DNA of 64,000 nucleotides from an uncultured Candidatus Peribacteria bacterium. Lineage in GTDB: Bacteria; Patescibacteriota; Gracilibacteria; BD1-5; JAGOOR01. Where the stretch lies: contig CAZJBQ010000002.1 in the NCBI GenBank assembly GCA_964544625.1, positions 49,462 to 113,461 on the forward strand. Reading direction: 5' to 3'. A model generated the notes under the pieces. The model did not search any database, was not told where the DNA came from, and worked only from the letters and a program-made list of their open reading frames with translations. The position numbers were made by a program, and so were the translations under genes. Position 1 is the first letter of the stretch. Each line of letters opens with the position of its first letter. This document shows, piece after piece, positions 5,870-50,257 of the stretch.

Positions 5870-6625
5870 CTATGCACTGATACGAGTTCCGCCACGGATA
5901 GTACGTCCCATGATATGTTGGTAAACAGTTGAAGTAACCCCATCACAAATATGGGTCACACCACCTGTTTTTGCGAATTCTCTCCCGACTGCAAGTTTTG
6001 AGCGCATGCCTCCTGTTCATGTCTGTGATTTTTCTCCACAAACTGTTCCCAGCCAACTCTCTGTTATAGTGTCTGACGAAAGTTCTTTGATTCGTGTTGA
6101 CGCATCATCTTTGTCGGAGTAGACACCATTTGTATTGGTGATGAGCACGATATCCGAAGCAGAGAGATATCGTGCTACGAGGAGAGCATTTTTATCATTA
6201 TCAGCGCCTCTTCCGAGCGCTTGCATTTCTGCCGTTGAGAGAGCATCGTTTTCATTGATAATTGGGAGTACTCCAGCCTCGAGAATATCGTTGACTGTGC
6301 GTACAAATTGAATTCGATGACTCTCTATATCTTCGAGAGTAGCATGAGTTGGGAGGATTTGTGCTGTGACGATACCACGCTTTCGAAATTTCTCTGCATA
6401 GCGTGCCATCAGTATTGGTTGACCGACACTCGCGAGTATTTGGTTATTTTTCTCTCATCAGAGTATCTCACGGCCACATCCGACTGCTCCAGAAGAAATG
6501 AGAATAACAGAGATTTTTTGTTTCATGAGTTGGGCGATATCTGCGATCATTTTTTTCACCTTTTCGCTGGTGTGAAAATTCGCGAGAGATTCTGTGCCGA
6601 CTTTCACGATAATTGTTTTGTCCAT
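5870..6625 (-). CDS. proB: glutamate 5-kinase (no PUA domain)
   Basis: IIVKVGT..., GADNDKNALLVA, and G(TGA)TGGMRSKL motifs. Track ORF 6017-6409 extended in frame on both sides. Confidence 0.75.
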
Positions 6626-6639
6626 AAAATTGTTGTATA

Positions 6640-6760
6640 AAAAATAAAAACCCTCTTGCGTACAAGAGGGCTGAAAAGAATATTGTGTACTTAAGAGCTA
6701 CCCCTTGGGAGAGAAGAGAAGTGGGGGAACCGGTGATGTGATTTGGAAAATATGATTCAT
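6640..6760 (-). promoter_or_regulatory. leader-peptide attenuator, unit proximal to proB (Pro-rich leader)
   Basis: Leader ORF 6760-6698 encodes MNHIFQITSPVPPLLFSPKG. Terminator CCCTCTTG/CAAGAGGG (6651-6670) plus a U-run. The leader 3' end CAAGGGG can pair with the terminator 5' arm. Confidence 0.6.
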
Positions 6761-6764
6761 AGCA

Positions 6765-6907
6765 ATAAAAAATCCCTCTACTGAAGAGGGATTTGAATTT
6801 AAAAATACAACAAATCTACCTCTTCATGAAGTTGAGATATGGCGGAGTTGAGAGATTTTTGTTGCAGAACATACTACAGAGTATAGCTTCGTTTCTGATT
6901 TTGTAAA
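6765..6907 (-). promoter_or_regulatory. promoter plus leader-peptide attenuator, distal unit of the proB tandem
   Basis: TTTACA-16-TATACT, then 7 nt, then ATG 6872. Leader ORF 6872-6816 encodes MFCNKNLSTPPYLNFMKR. Terminator ATCCCTCT/AGAGGGAT (6772-6792) plus a U-run. Confidence 0.5.
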
Positions 6908-14714: not shown

Positions 14715-14717
14715 TTA

Positions 14718-14945
14718 TTGCATTCCACTTTCTATCTATATAATCATTATATCAGCCCTGACTCCTGCTATCACAGGACGTGTCCTCCGAAGCCTTGGCG
14801 AAGGATGGACGAGCTGAGGGAAGAAATCGCAAGAAAGTAGACCCCTCCGGACACTGCACGTGACGCAGATAAATCAAGTACCGTTTTCGGTGGTAACTTC
14901 CTCACAAGAGGACCGAAACACACAGTTTATTTTGTGTGTTTTTTT
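14718..14945 (+). promoter_or_regulatory. promoter plus T-box-like leader of ileS
   Basis: TTGCAT-15-TATAAT. Antiterminator-like fold: helix UUUCGG/CCGAAA (14885-90/14913-18), 7-nt bulge UGGUAAC (14891-97), helix UCCUC/GAGGA. Competing hairpin AAACACACA/UGUGUGUUU plus a U-run ends at the ATG. Confidence 0.55.
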
Positions 14946-17900
14946 ATGCCCTTCTCTCTCCCCAAATGAAAACCCGAGTTCTCAAAACTCGAAGAATCTA
15001 TCCTCCAGTATTGGAAGGAAAATAAGACCTTTGAAAAATCAGTCGAATCCAGGCCGGCTGAAAATCCGTATCGATTCTATGATGGTCCTCCATTTATCAC
15101 GGGTACTCCGCATTATGGGAGCTTGCTATCTTCGATAATCAAGGATGTTGTTCCTCGCTATCAGACCATGCTCGGGAAGCGCGTCGAACGTGTCTGGGGA
15201 TGGGATTGTCATGGACTTCCAATTGAGCAAAAAGTACAGAAAAAATTATGACTTGAATCAAATAAAGAAATCGAAGAATCAGCAGGTGGAATCCAGGGAT
15301 TTATCGATGAATGTTACGCCTACACTCGCGATACTTCAGCAGAGTGGAGCTGGTATATCGATCATATCGGTCGATGGGTGGATATGGAGGGTGCGTACCG
15401 CACGATGGATCAGAACTATATGGAGTCGGTCATGTGGGTCTTCAAACAAATCTGGGAGAAAGGATATATCTACGAAGGGAAGCGTGTTTCGTGGTATTCT
15501 TGGAAGCTCTCGACCCCGATTTCAAACTTTGAAATCGCGATGGATGACAGCTATCAGGATGTCCAGGATCCAGCGATTACGGTGAAATTTCCACTCACAC
15601 AAGATACCTCAAAACAAGATGAGGTGCAGGGGTGAAAATTTGAATATACAGAGGATGGATATCTCCGATATGTCCTCGCAGTCATCCGAAATGCTGATGG
15701 TGAAGTTCTCATGCTCCAAAATAAAAAACACTGAAATACATGGCAATGTCCTGGTGGAAAAATTGACGCAGGAGAAACGGCAGAAACGGCTCTCAAAAGA
15801 GAAATAAAAGAAGAACTCTGAGTCGAGATAACCATCAGAAAGCATCTCTGAAATCGAAAAGTTTTCACTCAGCGTACTTTGTGGCAAGGGGAATATTTCG
15901 AAGTTGAGTTATTATCAAATCCAACTATTCAAGAACCAGAAAAACACGCCCAGATGCAGTGGATGAAAATCATAGACGATCCAGAACTCGTTCATGGTTA
16001 CTATCTCCAGTATGGTGAACATATTATTACCGAACAGCTTGGTCGGATGTATGATGCTCTCGCACTTCGAGCAATAGAGAAAAAATTACCTGAACTCAAA
16101 AGCATCTCATTGCTCGCATGGACAACAACCCCGTGGACTATACCGATGCATATGGCGATTGCGGTGCACAATGACCTCACGTATGTGTTAGTGCAAATTG
16201 AAGATGAAGCCTATTTGGTCGCGAAAAACCGTCTTGAGACCGTCATGAAAGGCAAAAATTTTACTGTTCTTACTGAATATCCTGGTTCATTCTTGGTTGG
16301 TAAATATTATCGTCCACCATTTGATTATTACGTCGGAAAAATCGATGAGAGAAATTTCCGTGTCTATCACGCTGACTTCGTCACTGACACTGATGGTACT
16401 GGTATCGCTCACGAAGCTCCAGAATTTGGTGATGTGGATTTTCAGCTTGCGAAGCAAGAGGGGATTTTCATCACGTCTGCAATCGATGAAGCAGGGAAGT
16501 ATACGGCACAAGTCCCAGACTATCAAGGCACGCTCTATATCGATGCTATCGACCCTATCACGGAACGACTCAAAGCAGAAGGAAAACTCTTCAAAAAAGA
16601 AGGTATCACTCACCGCGTCCCATACTGTCCTCGCAGCAATACGCCACTCATGCAGAAAGCCCAAAAGTCGTGGTTTATCGATATTCAGAGAATCAAATCT
16701 GAGCTCATCGCACAGAATGAAAATATCAACTGGTTTCCAGATCACTTTAAGCATGGACGATTTCTCAAATCTCTCGAATCTGCTCCAGATTGGTGCATCT
16801 CTCGCTCTCGTTTTTGGGGAACGCCGATGCCTGTATGGCAAAGTGCAGACGGTTCTGAGCGTGTCGTCATCGATTCTCGCGAAGAATTGTATCAGAGAAA
16901 TAAACCACTTGGTCAGATAACAAAGATTATTTTTGTGAGACATGCGGAGAGTGAAGCGAATGTAGCAAAAATGTATAATGATAATGGAACGTCTCCTCTG
17001 ACAAAGAAAGGACATGAGCAGGCAAAAAAACTCGCTCAAAGTCTTGAACAAGTTGATGTTGTACTTTGTTCACCATTTTTGAGAACAACGCAAACAGCAG
17101 AACCAATTGCACAAAAATTCGGACTTGATATTGAGGTTCGAGAATATCTCCATGAAACCAATCATGGCACACTAGCTGATCAAACACAGACAAAAACGGT
17201 ACTGGAAGAAAGAAAAAAATTCTTCGAAAATCATGACCATAAGTTTGGTGGAACAGGCGAATCATTCAATGATCTTATTGCTCGTGGAGAGGTTCTCCGA
17301 CAAGAAATTCTCGCAAAATATCCTGGGAAAACAGTCGTGGTCGTGAGCCACGGACATCCAGTCAAGGCATTTCTCGTCGCATGTGGAGCAAAAAGACCAA
17401 GTAATACTGAAAATGCAAAACCATACGTACTCTATCTCGATAACAACACAGGCAAGGAAATCAATCTCCACCGTCCATATATTGATCGGATTTATGTCCC
17501 ATGAAAATCTTCTTTCACTCCGAAAAAAGTGCTCGGTATTCATGGATGGACTTCTGCTGGCATCCAAAATCCGCAAGGAAAATGGTTGCCAATTCAAGAA
17601 AAGCTCAAAGCTGCATGAGTGCAATTTGATGTACCAGATTTTGATAAAAATAAGGAAACGAAATATTCACTTTGGAAAGAGAAGCTCGATACTCTGGATG
17701 TAGCAAGTTATGATACCATTATGGCAACGAGCTTTGGTTGTCCTGTTATCATGCAGTACCTCTGTGAGAGAAATATTAAATTAAAACGTCTTGTGTTGGT
17801 TGCTCCAAGTGGTCTCAAAGGGAATGAGTACCTCGAAAAAGTGATTCCAGAAATGACGGAAGATGTTGAGAAACTTCGATGACTCGTGGAAGAAATAATA

Positions 17901-19646
17901 GTCCCCCATAGTGAAGACGATGACTCGACCAGCGCACGATTTGAATACGGTCAATCACTCGCAAAAAGAATAGGTGCAATATTCCTCCCTATCAATGGTG
18001 TAGGTCATAAATTTGGAGGTTGGAGTATTGATTTTCTTTCTTCTCTTATCCAACACGGAGCCCCACTCCGTCGCGTCTCCGAAGTCCTTGATGTGTGGAT
18101 GGATAGTGCTTCGATGCCGTATGCACAAGTGCATTATCCATTTGAGAATCAAGCGAAAATGGAAGCGAGTTTCCCAGCCGATTTTATCGCAGAATACACA
18201 GGGCAGATTCGTGCATGGTTCTACGTGATGCACGCGATTGGCGTGATGGTAAAATGATCGCCAGCCTTCAAAAATGTCGCTGTCACATGAGTCATCAATG
18301 GAACTGATGGACGCAAGATGAGTAAATCCTACGGAAACTATCCTGATCCTCGTGAGACGATTCAGAAATACGGTGCTGACGCGATTCGCTTCTACCTCAT
18401 GGGCGGTACGCTGATGAAGGGTGAAGATATGGCATTTTCAGAAGCAGGTATTCAAGAATCAATCAAACGAGTCCTCCTTCCGCTCTGGAATTCCTACACT
18501 TTCTTTGCGACCTACGCAAATATCGATGAATGGGAATTCACGGATTATTCAACACCAAAGACACACGAACTCGATACATGGATTATTTCTCGTCTCCATA
18601 CATTGATTCAGGACACGAGAGTCTCAATGGATGCCTACGATCTCCAGAAAACGTGTGATGCTATCATGGTCTTCCTTGATGGTCTCAATAACTGGTATAT
18701 CCGGCGCAATCGCAGACGTTTCTGGAGAAGCGAACTCGATGCAGACAAAAAAAGTGCGTACGAAACACTCCATGAAGCCCTCGTCACAATGACGAAACTC
18801 CTCGCACCTATCTGTCCATTTATCACTGAGCATCTCTATCAGAATCTCATGAATACGACGGAATCACTGCATCTCACTGACGTCCCAGCAGAAAGCAGAG
18901 AGCACCTCCACCTCGCCGCGAAACAGAAAATGACACACCTCCAAAATCTCACCAATCTCGGTCTCGCTATTCGTGGTCGTGAGAAACTCCGCGTTCGACA
19001 GCCACTTCGAGCAGCGACGATTACCCTCGAACTCGATGAGAGCGCACGAGAGACACTCGCTGAAGAATTGAACGTCAAGGAAATACACAGTGTGAAAGAT
19101 GTCTCGGACTATGTCACCATTACCTATTCTCCTGATGCGAAAAAAATCGGAGCGACTGAGAGAAAACAATGGATGAAAACCATTATTGCTGATGCAAAAG
19201 CAGGGAAGGGGAACCTAACTTCAGAGGGGACTCTTGAACTCACGGTCCCAGAAGCACCAGACGGAAAAGTGGTTCTCGCTGCGGATGAATTTGAAGCGGT
19301 CTATACACCAAAAGAAGGTTCAACCATTGCTTTTGCTGGTAGCGCAGGATACGTCATCGGTCTCGATACAACCCTCGATGAAGCACTTACCTTTGAGGGC
19401 TATGCTCGTGATATGATTCGCGGTATTCAGGACGCTCGAAAAGAACTCGGATTCCAGGTCACTGATAGACTTCAACTCGCACTGACATCAGACAATGAAA
19501 TGCTTGGAAAAATTCTCGCCGTCCATCAAGGTATGATTGAAAAAGAAACTCTCACAACTGTCGAACTTCAGACTTCAAATCCCGAAAATACGAGAGAAGT
19601 CGAAATCGATGAAGGCTTTATGATTCATCTCAGTCTTACAAAATAA
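14946..19646 (+). CDS. ileS: isoleucyl-tRNA synthetase with three inserted enzyme domains (1566 aa)
   Basis: PHYGS (HIGH-type), WDCHGLP, WTTTPWT, LHRPYID and KMSKS motifs. All track fragments (15378, 15879, 17619, 17886, 18318) are in frame 0, joined by eleven TGA. Confidence 0.95.
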
Positions 19647-20991: not shown

Positions 20992-21143
20992 TTGAATTTT
21001 TCAGACTCAGAATATACTTTCTCCATGCGAAATATTCTCTCATCAGCAATGATACACCTGCTCACTCTCGTGACCAGGTAGTTTTTCGTTTCCGCTTAAT
21101 TCTACTCCCCGGGTCACACGACCTGGGGATTTTTTTGTTTTTT
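20992..21143 (+). promoter_or_regulatory. promoter plus leader-peptide attenuator (no single enriched residue)
   Basis: TTGAAT-15-TATACT, then 6 nt, then ATG 21025. Leader ORF 21025-21081 encodes MRNILSSAMIHLLTLVTR. Terminator CCCCGGGT/ACCTGGGG (21107-21128) plus a U-run ends 2 nt before ATG 21145. Confidence 0.5.
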
Positions 21144-21144
21144 T

Positions 21145-22860: not shown

Positions 22861-23835
22861 ATGGAAGATTTTGATTTACATGATAGACCTCATGTTTCTT
22901 TTGAAAAACCAGCGGATGATATCCTAGATTATGAATTATTCTTCCCAGAGACGTTTGTATTTTTACGAAAACACGGGATGGAGTGTTTGTCATTTGACGA
23001 ATTAGAACATCGTTGGAATGCTCGTCGTCACTTCCCAGCGTATCAGCAACATCAGCGTTTCTTTTTATCCTTACCATCGCTCAGAACGGCATCAGAATAC
23101 TACAGTACTCACACAGAAAACTATACGCAAGATATAGTACCATATACCAGGTTTTTCTCTCAAGAATTTCTCTGATGGCTCGATGAGCGATGATATATAA
23201 AACTCTCATTTGAGGATCTGCAGAAGAGATGGGAACTCTACCATTCTTTTGACCAACAGATGAAAAAGTATACAAAGGAATTTAAAATGCTTCGGTACAT
23301 CGAACTCCTGCGGCCATTACAGGGTGATGTGAACAATCTCCTGATGACAAATCTCCTCGATCATCCAGTCTGGTGACTGACTCCAGCTCAACGTGAAGCA
23401 TTTGGGCAAGCGTGTGAAAATATCGGTTGGCAGAGGTTATTTGATGCATTTGTTATTTTCTGAGGAACACCATTGCATGTATCAGATATCTGTGAAATGC
23501 CAGCATTGATACCTTTTTGAGATCAGATAGATCGGATTTTCCATTGTGCTCATGAATCACTCAAGTGTGCTATAGATGAAAAAACACTTCCTGAGGGTGA
23601 CTGGTTCGGCCCACGTATTATGTTTGCTGAAAATAGTATACGAAAACATCATGATATTCCGAGCTCTACGGTGATGATAGTGGCATGAATTATAGTATTT
23701 CAGATAGTATGAATATTGGCCGCACTTGATGCTACATCGAGACACCCTCGTGTGATATATCCAGGAGTGATAGATGATATACGAGCTCGCTGTGCAGAAA
23801 TATATGCTGGCATTTCTGGTATTTTTCCCGAATAA
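22861..23835 (+). CDS. hypothetical protein (324 aa)
   Basis: Frame 1 is open through seven TGA to TAA 23833. Checked line by line. Confidence 0.55.
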
Positions 23836-23837
23836 AT

Positions 23838-23978
23838 TTGATTTTCCATATAGACGCTTACAATATCTCTATGACATCTCGTCACAACATGATTATTATT
23901 ATCGCTTCGCATCACGCAGAGGGATAATATTTTCTTGTCATCATATTTTCTAACCTCTGCATCCGCAGAGGTTTTTTT
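23838..23978 (+). promoter_or_regulatory. isoleucine leader-peptide attenuator of ilvA
   Basis: TTGATT-15-TACAAT, then 6 nt, then ATG 23871. Leader encodes MTSRHNMIIIIASHHAEG (23871-23927). GCAGAGG at 23916-22 duplicates the terminator 3' arm (23965-71). The 5' arm CCTCTGC is at 23954-60. U7 at 23972-78. Confidence 0.7.
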
Positions 23979-23990
23979 ATTTTCTTTTTT

Positions 23991-25193
23991 ATGAAAACCA
24001 TCACACGTCCCGAGATAGAGAGGGCACAATCAGTTCTCCGAGAACATCGCATAGGAAATACTCCACTCACATCTCTTCAAAATCTCGTATCGTACCGACA
24101 AGGTACTGTACTTGGGAAGCGCGAAGATGAAAATGAGATAGGTTCGTACAAGATACGATGAGCGCTCTATGCTATCTCTCAACTCTCGCCTGAGCAGAAA
24201 AAAAGAGGAGTTGTCTGTGCATCGGCTGGCAATCATGCTCAGTGAGTTGCCTATGCTTGCAAACTCATGTGAATCCAATGAGTTATCTATATGCCCCGTA
24301 CGACGGACGCTACGAAAGTACGTCGAGTAAAGGAATTCGGTTGAGCCTCTGTTGAGGTTCGACTCGTATGAGATTATTTTGATCAGGCACAACAGGCCGC
24401 AAAGAAATATCAACGAGAAAAACGAGCCACTTTTGTCCATCCATTTGATGACCGTGACGTCATCATAGGGCAATCAACAGTGACGGCAGAAATACTTCAT
24501 GAAAATCCAAAAATACAAAATCTCATCTATCCTGTTGGTGGTGGTGGACTCATGACTGGAGGTATCATGGCACGTGATGCTCTCGGGAGTAGTGCTCTTA
24601 TTATCGGTGTAGAGCCAGCAGGAGCGCCGAGTATGACGCATGCCCTGGAACAATGAAAAAATTCTGCACTCAGTCACGTCAATAGATTTGTTGGATGAGC
24701 CGCTGTCGCTCAGGTCGGGAAAAATACATTTGATATTGTTCGAAAATCATGATCACAGATAGCCCTCGTTCCAGAGTGACGTGTGGCTCAGACAATGATT
24801 GATTTTCATCATGCTGGTGAAGTAGTCGAACCTGCGGGAGCACTCTGACTGGCAGGGGTTCATGTTCTTTCAGGCAAGCTTCGCGGGAGTGTCACCACTG
24901 TAGTATCTGGTCGATGCGTCTCTCCCAGTATGTGGACTGAAGTCCAGGGTTTAGCTGAGAAATTTAGTGGCAGAAAAATGATACTTGATATCATATTCCC
25001 CGAGAGAGAGGGCGCTCTTTCTTCTCTCCTCAAAGTACTTCCAAGGGGAATAAATATTGTTGCCTTTAATTATCAGAAACATTCTGGTCCATCGAGTCCA
25101 GCTCGGATAGAATTTGAGGGTGAGCCCGCCTCTCTTCATCGGGTACCATTTTTGATAAAAAAGGCTGGTTTTGCCTATTCTGAAGCGGAATAA
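23991..25193 (+). CDS. ilvA: threonine dehydratase (threonine ammonia-lyase) with C-terminal regulatory domain
   Basis: SYKIRG(TGA)A lysine motif, ASAGNHAQG(TGA)VA and GGGGL loop. 400 aa in one frame. Confidence 0.9.
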
Positions 25194-44547: not shown

Positions 44548-45003
44548 ATGAAACACCTTCCTCTCCAGTATTCCTCACGGGGTATCATCACGGATCGTGA
44601 TGGCAATATACTGCTCGTGAAGCACGGTTCTCACAAACCATATACGTTGCCAGGTGGACATCTCGAAAAAGATGAGACATTTCAAGAAGCTTTTGTAAGA
44701 GAGGCGAGGGAGGAGCTCGATATCGTCGTAGAGCTCATAGGTCTCGTGACTATTTACCGAGAAAATAATATACAATCACTCCCAGCACCTGTCCGAGTCC
44801 AAACTATCGAATATACCAATGAGCGTGGTCCACAGAGAAAATATGAGGAGTTTTTTCTGGCTCATATGGTTTCTGGTACTATCACGGTTCAATCATCAGA
44901 GATAGCGAGTTTTGGCTGGTTCACACTCGACCAAATACGTGCTATGTCTGACGTGGAAATTTACTCCAGTATCCGAGATATTGTGCTGAGCACAGTAGTC
45001 TAA
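44548..45003 (+). CDS. Nudix hydrolase
   Basis: Nudix box GGHLEKDETFQEAFVREAREELDI. Confidence 0.8.
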   Translation: MKHLPLQYSSRGIITDRDGNILLVKHGSHKPYTLPGGHLEKDETFQEAFVREAREELDIVVELIGLVTIYRENNIQSLPAPVRVQTIEYTNERGPQRKYEEFFLAHMVSGTITVQSSEIASFGWFTLDQIRAMSDVEIYSSIRDIVLSTVV

Positions 45004-45004
45004 T

Positions 45005-45152
45005 TTGACAAAAATTTCATTCGTCTAAAATTATCTCTATGCGTCAAACCAGTTCACTTCTTCTCAGCCTTCTTCTTTCCCACCGGGAGAGTTAGTTTGC
45101 TGCGAAGAAAAACCACGCACTTTCCACTCTCCCCGAAACGGGAGAGTTTTTT
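45005..45152 (+). promoter_or_regulatory. leucine leader-peptide attenuator of leuA
   Basis: TTGACA-15-TAAAAT, then 7 nt, then ATG 45039. Leader encodes MRQTSSLLLSLLLSHRES (45039-45095). GGGAGAG at 45085-91 duplicates the terminator 3' arm (45140-46). The 5' arm CTCTCCC is at 45127-33. U6 follows. Confidence 0.7.
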
Positions 45153-45170
45153 ATTTCTTTAATTTCTTAT

Positions 45171-46952
45171 ATGAGCAATGTAATGCACGAATTGGATATC
45201 CACTATGAAGAATGGTGAGAAATAATGGCACAAGTGATATCTTGAGAAAAACCCCTCGGTTTTCTACCCAAAAAGGAAAGTACTACGACTGGTTACAAAA
45301 TTTATAAGCCAGAAAAAGTTATTATCAACGAAGTTGGACCACGTGAATCGGACCAAGCAGGCGGATGATTCCAGCCCTGGAACAAAAAAGATATGATAGG
45401 CTCAGCTATAAGAGCCGGTATTCCAGCTGTAGAGGTGGCATTTGCGGCAGGAGTAGACATGCAGACTATTGACTGGGCCGTATCTGAATTTGGCCGCGAA
45501 AATACACGTTTATCAGCTCTAACAGGATTCTTCCCACAAGCTATAAAAGAAGGAGCGGGGAAATTGAACAAAGCAAAGAATGGAGGAGTACATATTTTTT
45601 ATCCTACCCAAATACACCATATACAGGCTATGTTGGACAAAGACGGTAAGACACCAGTGAGAGATTTACAAGACCAGGTGCTCAAAATGATTGAGAATAA
45701 TGTCTGAATAGCACGCGATAATATCGGAAATGTCCAATTCTCACCGGAGATTGCTACTGATACTGATCCAGTTTTTCTCCTCGAATCTGTGAGAAAGGCT
45801 ATCGAGAGCGGAGCTACTATTATCAATATGCCAGATACACGAGGAGGAACGCCTACTTGGTATATGGAGAAATTATTTCATTTTATGAGTTGGGGTACAC
45901 AAGATTTACGAGAAAAACATGATTTTATATTTTCTTGTCATAATCATAATGATACAGGCATGGCTATTGCGAATAGTATTGCTGCTATTCGATGATGAGC
46001 TACACAAGTAGAGTCCACATTTTCTGGTGTTGGGGAATGAGCAGGCAATGCTCCAACAGAGCAGATAATAAATACTTTGAGACAGAATGGCTATGATATC
46101 GGAAAAATAGATAACAAGAAAGCATGAAGGATTGCTGAATATGTCAGAGCTGTTGTCTATGGTCAAGTGGTAGTCCCATATGGTCCCTGATCTGATGCAG
46201 ATGGTGCTGGAGTCCACAAGGATCGTTGGCATAAATATGTCGCATGGTGTCGAAAAAATAATCTTCATCCCAATCCTGATTTTTATAGAGCGGGCGCAAG
46301 TAGGCTCAATTTTGAAGCAGATAGTGATAATGTAGCGATAGGGAGGTTGGGCGGTGCAGGACAAGTTCTTCACGCTCTCAAGTCTCACGGTGTATTTCGC
46401 CCTACAAAAAAATGACCTACAGTAGGAAGGATACATACTACTTTTTGTGGTGACGATAAGGGAAAAATTGGCACCACACAAGAAACCAAAGTAGCCTATG
46501 ATTCAAACGTATTTGCTGAATATCTCCGTAATTCAAGGAGAATATCACAAGAAAATATATCTTTTGAGAATAATTCTGTCACTATTTCGGCTGTTATCAA
46601 TGGTAAAAATATAGTTATATCTGGGCCCATGAGTACCGAATCTGGTCCTATCCCGACAATTATTTGAGCTATTAATAGATTTTTAGGTAAAGAAATAATC
46701 AAACTTCACGTTGAGCCTATTTATAAACCAATATTCACACCCGATGTTGCTCAACAACAATTTCCAGATATTCATCAAAACGGAACTCATCACAGTGATG
46801 TCGAAGATGCTCCTCTCTGGTCTGAGGTTGTTGTCAGTGTTAACGGTATTAACAAAAAATCTCGAGTAAGATGACAAAATATTGATGAAACATTTATTCG
46901 TGCTATATTTGAAGCGTGCCTGGATGTGATATGTCAAAAAACAAAAGAATAG
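45171..46952 (+). CDS. leuA: 2-isopropylmalate synthase (LeuA/CimA family) with C-terminal regulatory domain
   Basis: MPDTRGG, CHNHNDTGMAIAN and GVGEG(TGA)AGNA motifs. Three track fragments in frame 0. Confidence 0.85.
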
Positions 46953-47691: not shown

Positions 47692-47966
47692 TTGACTCAA
47701 CTGAAGAAATCGCTATAGTTCTTTCATGCAAATAAATTTCACAACAAAGACGCCAAAACTTCTCACATCGAGAGGGTAGTTTTTGTTTAAAATTTAATTT
47801 TTCAAAACCCTCTCAACCTGAGAGGGTTTTATTTTTTACGAATTGTATGTCACATCACCTCTCTCTCATAACAAGCACCACCAAGAAACCGCCAAAGCGG
47901 GGAGGATAAATTATTGCCACTTTATTCTCCACTCCGCTTTGAAACATCTGAAGCGGATTTTATTTT
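47692..47966 (+). promoter_or_regulatory. tandem Thr/Lys-rich leader-peptide attenuators of lysC-asd
   Basis: TTGACT-16-TATAGT, then 6 nt, then ATG 47726. Leader 1 encodes MQINFTTKTPKLLTSRG (to 47779), with terminator 47808-47837. Leader 2 encodes MSHHLSLITSTTKKPPKRGG (47847-47909), with terminator 47933-47966. Confidence 0.65.
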
Positions 47967-47980
47967 CTCATTTTATTTTT

Positions 47981-49225
47981 ATGTCACAGAGTTTATCACT
48001 ACCGCGAGTCCTCAAAGTCTGAGGAATACAAGTAGCCCGTATCTCTGATACAAGACCTCTTATTCAACGCCTCAAACAAGATGGTCCACTATCAGTTATT
48101 CTTTCTGCTCCAAATACGGATCAATTTCGTACAACCAATGTCCTCATAGAAGCCGCTTCTTCGCTTGCTGCTTGAGATGTGCAAAAATCGAGAGAACTCC
48201 TCCTCTCTGTACAGGATTTTGTTCTCAATACTGTTTGTCTCCCCCTTCATGGGGAAGCTATTTTTACAAAAATACAGAGAGATGTGTCTGGGCTTTTCCA
48301 GCAATATTTCACAGATATGGATTTTTATTTACGTAAAAGGTCTCCAACGGCTCGACTCTATACTTCTGCTCCAGAAGAATCCAATGATTTTGTTGCATCT
48401 GTATGGAAAAAACCAACACACAATGGGCGTGGTGGATCTGGGAAACTTCAAACAGTGATACCATTTATCGAACTCGGTGAAAATATATCCGCGATTATCT
48501 ATGCACATCTGACTGGCGGAATACCGATCACGAGTCGATCATGGATGAGGGATGAAATTGCAGACGTTCATAAAAGAGTAAGAGAGAGTCAAAATCTCAT
48601 TATTTCATGAGCCCTCCGTATGAATGCTCGAGACAAAATGCTTGTTCGCTTCTGACGTGGATATACAGATGCAAATGCGTGACGCTTGGCCTTTGGCGCA
48701 GGAGCTGAATTGCTCGTTCATAAAGAATATCCTGTCTGTACTGCCGATCCAAGAATCGTAAATGGTTCGAGTCGACCAATACCCGAAGCCTCTATGGCAA
48801 CACTTCGTGCCAGTCTCCATCCTCTTGTTGGTGCTCAGTTTCTCAATCCTCATGTTTTCGCTGACGGAGAACCAGTGGATATTCAGGTTGGCGATTTTGC
48901 TTCGGAGAGGATAACGCGTGTTTCACGGAGAGATATACCCGAAGCACTCCCACTTATCCAAAAAGGTCCACGAGTACGGAGAGCTCAGGAGTGAATGAAT
49001 TTCTGAGATATATCTCTCTCAGTCAACGGATGAGGAGATGAATGTGTTATATCAGTCGTGGATCATTCTGCACGAAGTATAGAACGTGCTAGAGATATCC
49101 AGAGCATTCTTTGATCTAGAGGTGTTATTGTTTCACTCAATGAACGTGTTGCATCAGTATTGGTCCCATACGACCAGGCAAACGACATTGTTCGACAGCT
49201 TCATCAGAATATGTGCGAGACATAA
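47981..49225 (+). CDS. lysC: aspartate kinase with C-terminal ACT region
   Basis: VLKVG(TGA)G, SAPNT..TN and TADPRIV motifs. Three same-frame fragments. Confidence 0.85.
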
Positions 49226-49246: not shown

Positions 49247-50257
49247 ATGAAAATCGGAATTGTATGAGCGACAGGTGCAGTAGGACAAGAATTACTTCCA
49301 CTGCTTAAAAAAAGAGATTTTCCTGTCTGAGAATTGAGAGTATTTGGTTCAGAAAACTCAGCGGGAAAAACAATAGAAACGCCTTATGGACCAAGAGTTA
49401 TTCAGCTTCTTTCTGAAGAGGGAATACAGTGATTGGATGCGATGTTTTTTGCAGCGAGTGCTGAAGTATCTCGTGTATGGTGTCTTCGTGCTGCAGAAAA
49501 ATGAATTCTCTGCGTGGATAAATCGAGTGCATTTCGGAGTGATCCAAATATCCCACTTGTTGTGCCAGAAGTAAATGGCCACAGTATCCGTGAGGGTGAC
49601 CTGATTATCTCTAGTCCGAATTGTACAGCCACCATCGGAGCGTTGGCACTATGACCTATTCATCAGGCTTTGTGACTACGACGAGTGTTTGCATCGACCT
49701 ATCAAGCAGCGAGCGGTGCTGGACAACCAGCGATGGAAGAGCTTATCGCAGCCACGCGTGCAAAGCTGGCAGGAGAAAATTTCACACCACAACAATTCGA
49801 TCATAATTTAGCCCTTAATCTCTTCCCACACATTGGTACTTTTCTCGAAGATGGATATACGGATGAAGAAATGAAGTTCACTAATGAACTTCGTCGGATT
49901 TTAGGGTTACCACACCTCCCAATAGATTGTACCTCTGTGCGTGTACCTATTTCTCGAGCTCACAGTGAAGATATTACGGTCGAAACTGAACAGCCTTTTG
50001 TCGTGAAGCAGGTCCAAGAGCTTTTATCACGGTCAGCTGGCGTAGACCTCGTTGATGAACCAGGAAAAAAACGGTATCCTATGCCTTCGTGAGCAACAGG
50101 AAAGTATAATGTGGAAGTGGGGCGAGTACGTCAGAGTTTTTCTTTTGATGGACACGGTGGTCGATTCTTCGTATCTGGTGATCAGCTCCTCAAGGGTGCA
50201 GCACTCAATGGACTCCAAATACTCGAACATGTATTGAAACAGAGACGAAAAGCCTAA
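49247..50257 (+). CDS. asd: aspartate-semialdehyde dehydrogenase
   Basis: IGIVG(TGA)ATGAVG, SPNCTA active-site Cys and [10 protein letters not shown]. Confidence 0.9.

Follow-up and report, generated by a model that had tools for sequence, protein, structure and literature searches.

The window analysed here, a stretch of 64,000 nucleotides (nt) from an uncultured Candidatus Peribacteria bacterium (assembly GCA_964544625.1, contig CAZJBQ010000002.1, positions 49,462 to 113,461; the coordinates below are those of the whole stretch), carries a short leucine-codon leader immediately upstream of a monocistronic gene encoding a LeuA/CimA-family synthase. Very probably this leader regulates the synthase gene by ribosome-mediated transcription attenuation of the leader-peptide kind, with charged tRNA-Leu as the signal that is sensed. 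The sequence elements of such a device and their mutually exclusive pairings are present, with conservation and co-variation in the orthologues. The evidence supports a real, conserved leucine-codon attenuator whose mechanism is known and whose phylogenetic and genomic setting is new. Its particular features are a probable leaderless start, an antiterminator strand (region 2) located in the last leader codons, a tandem arrangement in one clade, a lineage-restricted target and a candidate-phyla-radiation (CPR)-type host that uses genetic code 25.

Architecture of the unit

Positions 44700-45400 were inspected letter by letter. A 167-nt region (45005-45170), intergenic under translation table 25 and directly preceded by the stop codon of a NUDIX gene (45003), houses the whole attenuator unit, which comprises the following features together with the gene that it precedes.

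45005-45010, + strand: -35 box TTGACA, matching the consensus at 6/6 positions
45026-45031, + strand: -10 box TAAAAT, after a 15-nt spacer and 7 nt ahead of the leader ATG
45039-45095, + strand: leader open reading frame (ORF) MRQTSSLLLSLLLSHRES, 18 codons plus TAG (45093-45095), ATG at 45039-45041
45057-45077, + strand: regulatory codons CTT CTT CTC (45057-45065), AGC, CTT CTT CTT (45069-45077), by direct reading
45040-45119, + strand: protector (1:2) hairpin of the minimum-free-energy structure
45085-45092, + strand: region 2, GGGAGAGT, 5' strand of the antiterminator, leader codons 16-18, 8/8 pairing with 45126-45133
45126-45133, + strand: region 3, ACTCTCCC, the shared strand (antiterminator 3' strand and terminator 5' arm)
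45140-45152, + strand: region 4, GGGAGAGT (terminator 3' arm, 45140-45147) running into T6 (45147-45152), from the terminator scan and the fold
45171-46952, + strand: regulated gene, a 593-aa divergent LeuA/CimA-family (alpha-isopropylmalate/citramalate synthase type) protein with 12 in-frame TGA codons (Gly)

The initial annotation had described a leucine leader with two triplets of Leu codons, and all of its coordinates proved correct on direct reading. The leader contains six Leu codons within seven consecutive codons; among the 991 ORFs of 8-40 codons that begin with ATG, counted on the two strands of the window, only 3 contain a run of at least six identical residues per seven codons, the leader being one of them. 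Over four distinct Leu leaders, the Leu codons are CTT (14), CTC (7) and CTA (3), with neither TTA nor TTG. CTT is a minor codon in nine long ORFs of the window, representing 14% of their Leu codons versus 63% for CTC.

The TTGACA and TAAAAT boxes also lie where they had been placed, and the sequence layout fits the accompanying proposal of a likely start at or next to the leader ATG. A consensus scan on its own places a sigma-70-like promoter at 45005, and the -35 box is kept as TTGACA or TTGACC in the orthologous loci L001, L006, L007, L009 and L013. The same succession of a -35 box, a 15-16 nt spacer, TAnAnT, 6-7 nt and ATG is found in 13 units (leuA-like, ilvA, ask1 and proB1, in the window and in orthologues). 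Because the ORF begins about 7 nt past the -10 box, the transcript probably starts at the leader AUG or 1 nt before it, and would thus be leaderless.

Alternative RNA structures and proposed mechanism

A consensus scan identifies an intrinsic terminator at 45126-45147 (ACTCTCCC-CGAAAC-GGGAGAGT, then T6), with a stem of 8 bp including 5 GC pairs and a loop of 6 nt. The terminator hairpin has an energy of -13.0 kcal/mol and the antiterminator alone -16.4 kcal/mol. The GGGAGAG in the last leader codons (45085-45091) had been reported as a duplicate of the terminator 3' arm; it is indeed identical to 45140-45146, with CTCTCCC at 45127-45133, and the T6 at 45147-45152 lies 19 nt ahead of the gene ATG at 45171, as read directly. 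Pairing of the last 24 nt of the leader ORF with the terminator 5' arm yields -14.9 kcal/mol, whereas random 24-mers drawn from the window average -3.7 (empirical P 0.003).

The 125-nt leader folds at -39.6 kcal/mol (z = -5.1; 0/200 dinucleotide shuffles as good) into two successive structures: an extended hairpin that joins the Leu-codon strand to GGGAGAG and its flanks, and then the terminator. In this protector hairpin, UUCUUC, CAGC and CUUUCCC of the Leu-codon strand (45058-45081) pair with GGGAGAG (45085-45091), GCUG (45099-45102) and GAAGAA (45104-45109). The predicted fold sequesters region 2 in the absence of leader translation.

The effect of a ribosome was modelled by folding the nascent RNA as far as the terminator loop, without the 3' arm and with a footprint masked (the A-site codon plus 7 or 10 nt); folding before the 3' arm emerges was judged more relevant than equilibrium folding of the full length. 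When the transcript bears no ribosome, or one that is still at the start of the ORF (in the window, as far as codon 5), the Leu-codon strand occupies region 2 and leaves the terminator 5' arm unpaired (0/8 nt). With the A site on codons 5/6 to 13 (to 12 under the wider mask), all eight nt of the terminator 5' arm pair with 45085-45092 (-16.4 kcal/mol in masked folding). This interval takes in all six Leu codons under the narrower mask, and the wider mask partly hides the last of them. From codon 15, or 14 under the wider mask, through the stop, region 2 is covered, 0/8 nt are paired and the terminator forms. The masked folds have the same outcomes in the window, L001 and L006. No protector hairpin is predicted for L013 or for the second of the two tandem units of L007 (L007_B), and the feature is therefore not universal in the clade. 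The first L007 unit (L007_A) and proB2 were left out of the masked-fold results, as the terminator was misassigned in both.

From this arrangement, we infer a transcription start, leader translation, ribosome stalling and a response to leucine that would operate as follows. Transcription would begin at, or 1 nt ahead of, the AUG of the 18-codon leader ORF. When Leu-tRNA is plentiful, the ribosome would reach the UAG and cover GGGAGAGU (region 2); ACUCUCCC (region 3) would then pair with the downstream GGGAGAGU (region 4), and RNA polymerase would stop at the U tract, 19 nt before the gene. If the leader is untranslated, region 2 would be held by the Leu-codon strand (CUUUCCC and its flanks), leading to termination too. 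When Leu-tRNA is scarce, the ribosome would stall on one of the six CUU/CUC codons, the protector hairpin would melt and region 2 would be freed. Region 2 would then pair with region 3 first, blocking the terminator and allowing the gene to be transcribed. In silico, this predicted three-state logic matches that of classical attenuators.

Conservation across orthologues

The initial annotation had staked its reading on conservation of the Leu run and of the duplicated arm upstream of leuA orthologues, and both are kept in all four orthologue clusters found among 5.8 billion proteins (84, 83, 54 and 34% protein identity). In every cluster, a short ORF containing a Leu run lies close to the promoter, its last codons repeat the terminator 3' arm, and a terminator stands 18-25 nt ahead of the gene. 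The orthologous leaders, of 18-25 codons and with 5-7 Leu codons each, are listed below.

L001, 84% identity: leader MRPSQSLLLNLLLSHRES
L006, 83% identity: leader MRPSQSPCLTAGKLLLNLLLSHRES, with a 21-nt (7-codon) in-frame insertion upstream of the Leu run
L007/L009 unit A, 54% identity: leader MKAISNSLLVLILLPSQGGVGL, first of a tandem pair
L007/L009 unit B, 54% identity: leader MKSYFLLALLLLISGGLGA, second of the tandem pair
L013, 34% identity: leader MNSRTNIAFLLLLALQAPGAVA

The upstream neighbour is a NUDIX gene in the window, a radical-SAM activase gene in L001 and an MgtC gene in L007; thus, the unit travels with the synthase gene. Since a MAFFT alignment of the leaders leaves the arms out of register across clades, the arms were compared lineage by lineage:

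Window clade: region 2 GGGAGAG; terminator arms CTCTCCC and GGGAGAG
L007 clade: region 2 GGGAGG; terminator arms CCCTCC and GGAGGG
L013: region 2 CCAGGAG; terminator arms CTCCTGG and CTAGGAG

The three interacting segments change together between lineages, with differing arm sequences. When the last 24 nt of the ORF were paired against the terminator 5' arm locus by locus, the duplex of regions 2 and 3 reached -13 to -17 kcal/mol versus -3 to -6 kcal/mol for random 24-mers of the same locus (empirical P 0.003-0.008).

One attenuator precedes the leuA-like gene in the window clade and two do so in the L007 clade. In L007 (5871-6318; also in L009-L012), two tandem Leu attenuators with near-identical terminators precede the LeuA-like gene, separated by a 57-codon ORF (MNSPDHAPSENELRIRSLLEES...) that matches no family. 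In the deposited L007 gene model of 708 aa, the start is placed about 106 codons too far upstream, and the model runs across the second attenuator. A scan of the GTDB species representatives with the LeuA-like profile found no relative. One distant match of 30% identity, from a single metagenome scan, was not used.

Probable sister attenuators in the same window

Three further loci of the window carry units of the same design.

23835-23990: Ile attenuator of ilvA (gene 23991-25193), leaderless ORF MTSRHNMIIIIASHHAEG with Ile4, terminator 23952-23973 then T7
47692-47980: tandem Thr/Lys attenuators MQINFTTKTPKLLTSRG and MSHHLSLITSTTKKPPKRGG, terminators 47804-47830 and 47933-47957, gene ATG at 47981
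6626-6880, - strand: tandem Pro-codon units MFCNKNLSTPPYLNFMKR and MNHIFQITSPVPPLLFSPKG with 2 and 4 Pro codons, proB-like gene 5870-6625

As in the leucine unit, the promoter lies 6-7 nt before the ATG, the regulatory codons form the 5' strand of the protector stem, the last codons contain a copy of the terminator 3' arm, and the terminator stands 18-25 nt before the gene. The units differ from it in their regulatory codons and arm sequences. The ilvA leader contains a copy of GCAGAGG ahead of the terminator CCTCTGC...GCAGAGG plus T7 (z = -5.8), and its AUUAUUAUUAUC pairs with GAUAAUAU, a partner strand tailored to its own regulatory codons. The initial annotation had called for the same tests on this unit and on the leucine unit; the ilvA leader is likewise conserved, as MTTRQNMIIIIASHHAEG and MTSRHNNIIIITSPSAEG in orthologues of 76% and 54% identity (contigs L095 and L096). 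L001 and L006 retain both Thr/Lys leaders, with third-position changes that are synonymous. The gene that follows them encodes a 414-aa protein with no Pfam domain and weak similarity to aspartokinase, and asd is next (49247-50257). The proB-like gene resembles glutamate-5-kinase (146.9 bits versus a cut-off of 186), and its Pro enrichment is weaker than the Leu or Ile runs.

The enriched codon thus matches the downstream gene at four loci: Leu with the LeuA-like synthase, Ile with IlvA, Thr/Lys with the Ask-like protein and Asd, and Pro with the ProB-like kinase. Cognate codons at four loci are hard to explain without amino-acid-specific sensing.

IlvA has relatives of 76, 72 and 54% identity in its own lineage. 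Its nearest named outside homologues (41-46% identity) belong mostly to Bacteroidota, another phylum with little Shine-Dalgarno use. Because of these homologues, horizontal acquisition of the ilvA gene, and perhaps of the attenuator design too, was considered as a possibility suggested by the sequence comparison.

The downstream gene

Calling ORFs with the standard code (table 11) breaks the downstream gene into fragments at TGA codons, and reading TGA as sense restores a single ORF of 593 codons. Among stop-type triplets of the window, TGA (1499) is 2.3-2.7 times commoner than TAA (645) and TAG (557). In a codon alignment of five orthologues, TGA stands opposite Gly codons 120 times and never opposite TGG/Trp; therefore, the code is table 25 (TGA = Gly). 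A public protein collection translated these contigs with TGA = Trp, which places W at Gly sites. The valyl-tRNA synthetase of the window is 77-88% identical to those of four metagenome-assembled genomes (MAGs) named "uncultured Candidatus Peribacteria" and about 49% identical to those of Gracilibacteria MAGs. The nearest MAGs are CAZRUI01, CAYQWU01, CAZFTF01, CAZWBM01 and CAYZVC01.

The sole Pfam domain detected in the protein is HMGL-like (residues 50-310, E = 1e-39). NCBIfam models for LeuA, CimA and homocitrate synthase match its N-terminal half, all far under their cut-offs; the best, NF002086, scores 147.6 bits against a cut-off of 532, and TIGR00973 scores 124.3 against 598.7. An hhalign comparison with a LeuA/CimA profile aligns residues 52-595 with positions 4-520 at a probability of 100%, including the region of the GPV..A motif. 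The features of the DRE-TIM (HMGL-like) catalytic domain (Arg, His-x-His and the catalytic His) are present: R58, Q62, H257, H259 and H349 are invariant in an alignment of 18 sequences (LeuA, CimA and one NifV homocitrate synthase), and the RDGEQ motif appears as RESDQ, with Asp and Glu swapped.

The AlphaFold model used is that of the 84%-identical orthologue P0001 (pLDDT, the predicted local distance difference test, 67 overall and about 90 in the barrel), which is of moderate quality because the P0001 sequence has Trp at the TGA sites. The best Foldseek matches are Mycobacterium tuberculosis LeuA and catalytic domains of isopropylmalate synthase (IPMS), and the best sequence matches in the PDB are also IPMS. 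Pfam PF08502 (LeuA_dimer) is not detected in the protein; Foldseek aligns about 600 columns to full-length M. tuberculosis LeuA, with a C-terminal pLDDT of 55-80. Profile and model comparisons thus support a full-length LeuA/CimA homologue that probably includes the C-terminal regulatory region. An exhaustive HMMER search of 1.84 billion representatives shows scores falling from 1160 to 391 bits (a 318-aa fragment) and then to 239 bits, and neither this nor a profile search retrieved further full-length family members.

The earlier proposal that the leader controls leuA holds insofar as a LeuA/CimA-family gene lies downstream, as profile and fold indicate; a standard leuA it is not, given the score of its best NCBIfam model. 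"leuA" appears to be a reasonable family-level label, with a putative substrate assignment. As to whether other leu genes carry the same leader, the window holds no further leu gene.

Probable leaderless gene starts

A Shine-Dalgarno motif is absent from all 23 gene starts examined in the window, many of which are preceded by a TAnAAT box at a distance of 5-7 nt from the ATG; leaderless initiation is therefore apparently common in this genome, which suggests that leaderless mRNAs are widespread here. The 24 nt from the terminator hairpin to the ATG of the synthase gene are likewise U/A-rich and free of a Shine-Dalgarno motif.

Alternative explanations

Several observations weigh against a leucine-sensing attenuator of a leuA gene. 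In the full-length minimum-free-energy fold with a wide mask (A site plus 12 nt), stalls at codons 9-13 retain the terminator. Region 2 can alternatively pair with ACUUUCC (about 45119-45125), just upstream of the terminator, and because of this competing partner the antitermination outcome rests on kinetics and on the true ribosome footprint. Because the Leu codons also belong to a stem, their conservation cannot be separated from RNA structure. The promoter that carries the inferred transcription start has an unusually short spacer of 15 nt, and the scan tool favoured AATTAT with an 18-nt spacer, from which the start would fall inside the ATG. The enzyme scores below every LeuA equivalog cut-off, which makes the LeuA/CimA label a family-level one. 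Other leu or ilv biosynthetic genes were not seen within the window, and Gracilibacteria genomes are reported to be limited in amino-acid synthesis (PMC11452946). About three independent lineages are at hand.

The Leu codons as the 5' strand of the protector hairpin could also belong to a device that depends on ribosomes and is not specific for leucine, reporting translation capacity or coupling, or delivering ribosomes to a gene without a Shine-Dalgarno sequence, with the Leu run serving as a pyrimidine stem strand. The gene starts examined in the window, which have no Shine-Dalgarno motif, would suit such a role, as would L007_B and L013, which could be two-state devices (ribosome reaching the stop or not) because no protector hairpin is predicted for them. 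This explanation is nevertheless improbable, since the enriched codon fits the downstream gene at four separate loci, the partner strand is tailored to the regulatory codons in each unit, and Leu runs persist where the leaders are otherwise unalignable. A translation-independent RNA switch responding to a protein, a metabolite or, in the manner of a T-box, a tRNA, with the short ORF incidental, is more improbable still. Alternative terminator and antiterminator structures are common to many non-ribosomal attenuators, and the ileS leader of the same genome is a conserved element without an amino-acid-rich ORF. However, a scan of the whole window yields no Rfam match that reaches the gathering score of its family; for 44900-45250 searched at E <= 10, neither Leu_leader (RF00512) nor a T-box is found and matches are limited to sub-threshold noise; and no T-box motif is visible in 45039-45152. 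The sole weak match over the full length is to a leader-peptide family, Phe_leader (18.7 bits versus a gathering score of 55, E = 1). Moreover, although the nucleotides diverge, orthologues retain the ORF and its length class, the Leu run keeps its position, and the stop still overlaps region 2; an in-frame indel is present in one orthologue.

Within the close clade the hydrophobic peptide is conserved, and trans-acting leader peptides are known (peTrpL, PMC7298713); the ORF might therefore encode a functional micropeptide, membrane-active or trans-acting, with the hairpin as its own terminator. This is very improbable: the peptide is not conserved outside the Leu run, and a membrane role would leave unexplained the Ile-, Thr/Lys- and Pro-containing sister peptides before cognate genes. 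Such a role would not exclude attenuation in any case. Finally, the ORF could have arisen by chance and the hairpin could terminate the NUDIX gene, with an unrelated synthase promoter after it, since the unit directly follows the NUDIX stop and no other T-tract terminator follows that gene. The promoter, however, lies upstream and not downstream of the terminator, which therefore interrupts the synthase transcript. Synteny contradicts this reading too, as the unit stays with the synthase where the upstream gene differs (L001 and L007). With the scarcity of such runs among small ORFs and P values of about 0.003-0.008 for the pairing of regions 2 and 3 in each of three lineages, a chance origin has a close to negligible probability.

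Comparison with known systems

The enterobacterial leu attenuator, including that of Escherichia coli, combines a leuL ORF with a Leu run, 1:2, 2:3 and 3:4 hairpins, a terminator before leuA and use of a minor Leu codon. The present leader shares the Leu-run ORF, the alternative hairpins, the terminator before the gene and the minor Leu codon, but has no sequence or covariance-model similarity to its enterobacterial counterpart (leuL, RF00512). It differs from leuL in its 18 codons, its probable leaderless start, the lack of any Shine-Dalgarno sequence and its region 2 within the last codons rather than after the stop. The target is a single divergent gene in a CPR-type bacterium with TGA = Gly, rather than leuABCD.

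The leuA, ilvB and trp leaders of Corynebacterium provide another parallel in layout, as a Leu-run leader directly precedes monocistronic leuA (Corynebacterium diphtheriae MNRANLLLLRRGGSQA), and the ilvB leader of C. diphtheriae is a leaderless transcript (PMC5784534). However, these are high-GC Actinomycetota with a canonical LeuA and Shine-Dalgarno use (AGGag in about 87% of 5' untranslated regions in C. diphtheriae; PMC5784534), and no sequence relationship is detectable. In the actinobacterial LEU element, the Leu run pairs with leuA's Shine-Dalgarno box in a pseudoknot suggestive of translational control, and the classical parts are often missing (Seliverstov et al. 2005, PMC1262725). The present unit resembles it in having a candidate Leu-run leader ORF upstream of leuA with Leu codons involved in RNA pairing. 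It differs in that it has a clear terminator and antiterminator and its Leu run pairs with region 2 inside the leader, and it is not a LEU element because the present gene has no Shine-Dalgarno sequence. The ilv-leu attenuator of Staphylococcus aureus, likened here by description only, is another leucine-rich leader peptide for branched-chain genes outside Proteobacteria, but serves a large ilv-leu operon jointly with CodY (PMC5794164). A full-text literature search found no paper tying Gracilibacteria, Patescibacteria or CPR to leader-peptide attenuation.

Implications

The leucine attenuator places classical ribosome-stalling attenuation, which needs tight coupling of transcription and translation, in a CPR/Patescibacteria-type lineage with a reassigned stop codon. 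Because the mechanism is a textbook one, the advance concerns its distribution and use rather than its kind. The leader amino acid is an independent functional label: it ties to leucine a protein that fails the LeuA models, just as the Thr/Lys leaders tie a protein without Pfam domains to the aspartate pathway. This offers a practical annotation principle for "dark" genomes. The uniform design, with its leaderless AUG, its antiterminator strand in the last codons and its frequent tandems, would be a compact test bed for attenuation without Shine-Dalgarno sequences.

It is possible, though rather doubtful, that these units represent a lineage-wide regime in TGA-recoded Gracilibacteria/"Peribacteria"-type CPR that lack Shine-Dalgarno sequences, in which isolated enzymes at first steps or branch points are each controlled by leaderless leader peptides that frequently occur in tandem, the LeuA-like enzyme possibly acting outside the canonical leucine pathway. 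The targets of such a regime would be the LeuA-like synthase, IlvA, the Ask-like/Asd pair, the ProB-like kinase and possibly a homocysteine methyltransferase. About five sequence clusters among billions of proteins make up the family of the Leu-controlled enzyme, which could be a synthase that responds to Leu and uses keto acids from the host. In that case, partial amino-acid pathways would be retained by reduced episymbiotic bacteria under the tuning of tRNA-charging sensors, and the codons of a leader could serve to label the function of enzymes that otherwise defy annotation.

Other conserved elements

A short leaderless ORF followed by a terminator occurs at 21040-21144 of the window, at about 8700-8852 of L095 and at about 9130-9282 of L096 (MRNILSSAMIHLLTLVTR, MRTIISSSMMHLLTLVAR and MRNQSSSSMMLLLTYVTR). 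The ORF downstream of it in the window has just 108 aa. Elements of this type could be Met-sensing units, an idea suggested by the L095 copy, which precedes a gene of the homocysteine S-methyltransferase type (PF02574).

A leader of about 230 nt, whose terminator abuts the ATG, precedes ileS in the window (14715-14945, with the IleRS ATG at 14946), in L095 (2549-2755) and in L096 (4130-4393). Its core (GTAGACC..CTGCACGTnACGCAGA..AAATCAAGTACCGnTTTCGGTGGTAAC) barely varies between lineages that share 54% identity in IlvA. Its "GGTGGTAAC" resembles a T-box motif, with AUC/AUU upstream; no Rfam match at E <= 1 and no Ile-rich ORF were found in it. It may be a divergent T-box or a new element. The IleRS encoded downstream (window 14946-19646; L095 2750-7384; L096 4388-9139) has about 1550-1580 aa and, according to precomputed Pfam lists, contains NUDIX and histidine-phosphatase (His_Phos_1) domains inserted between the synthetase domains.

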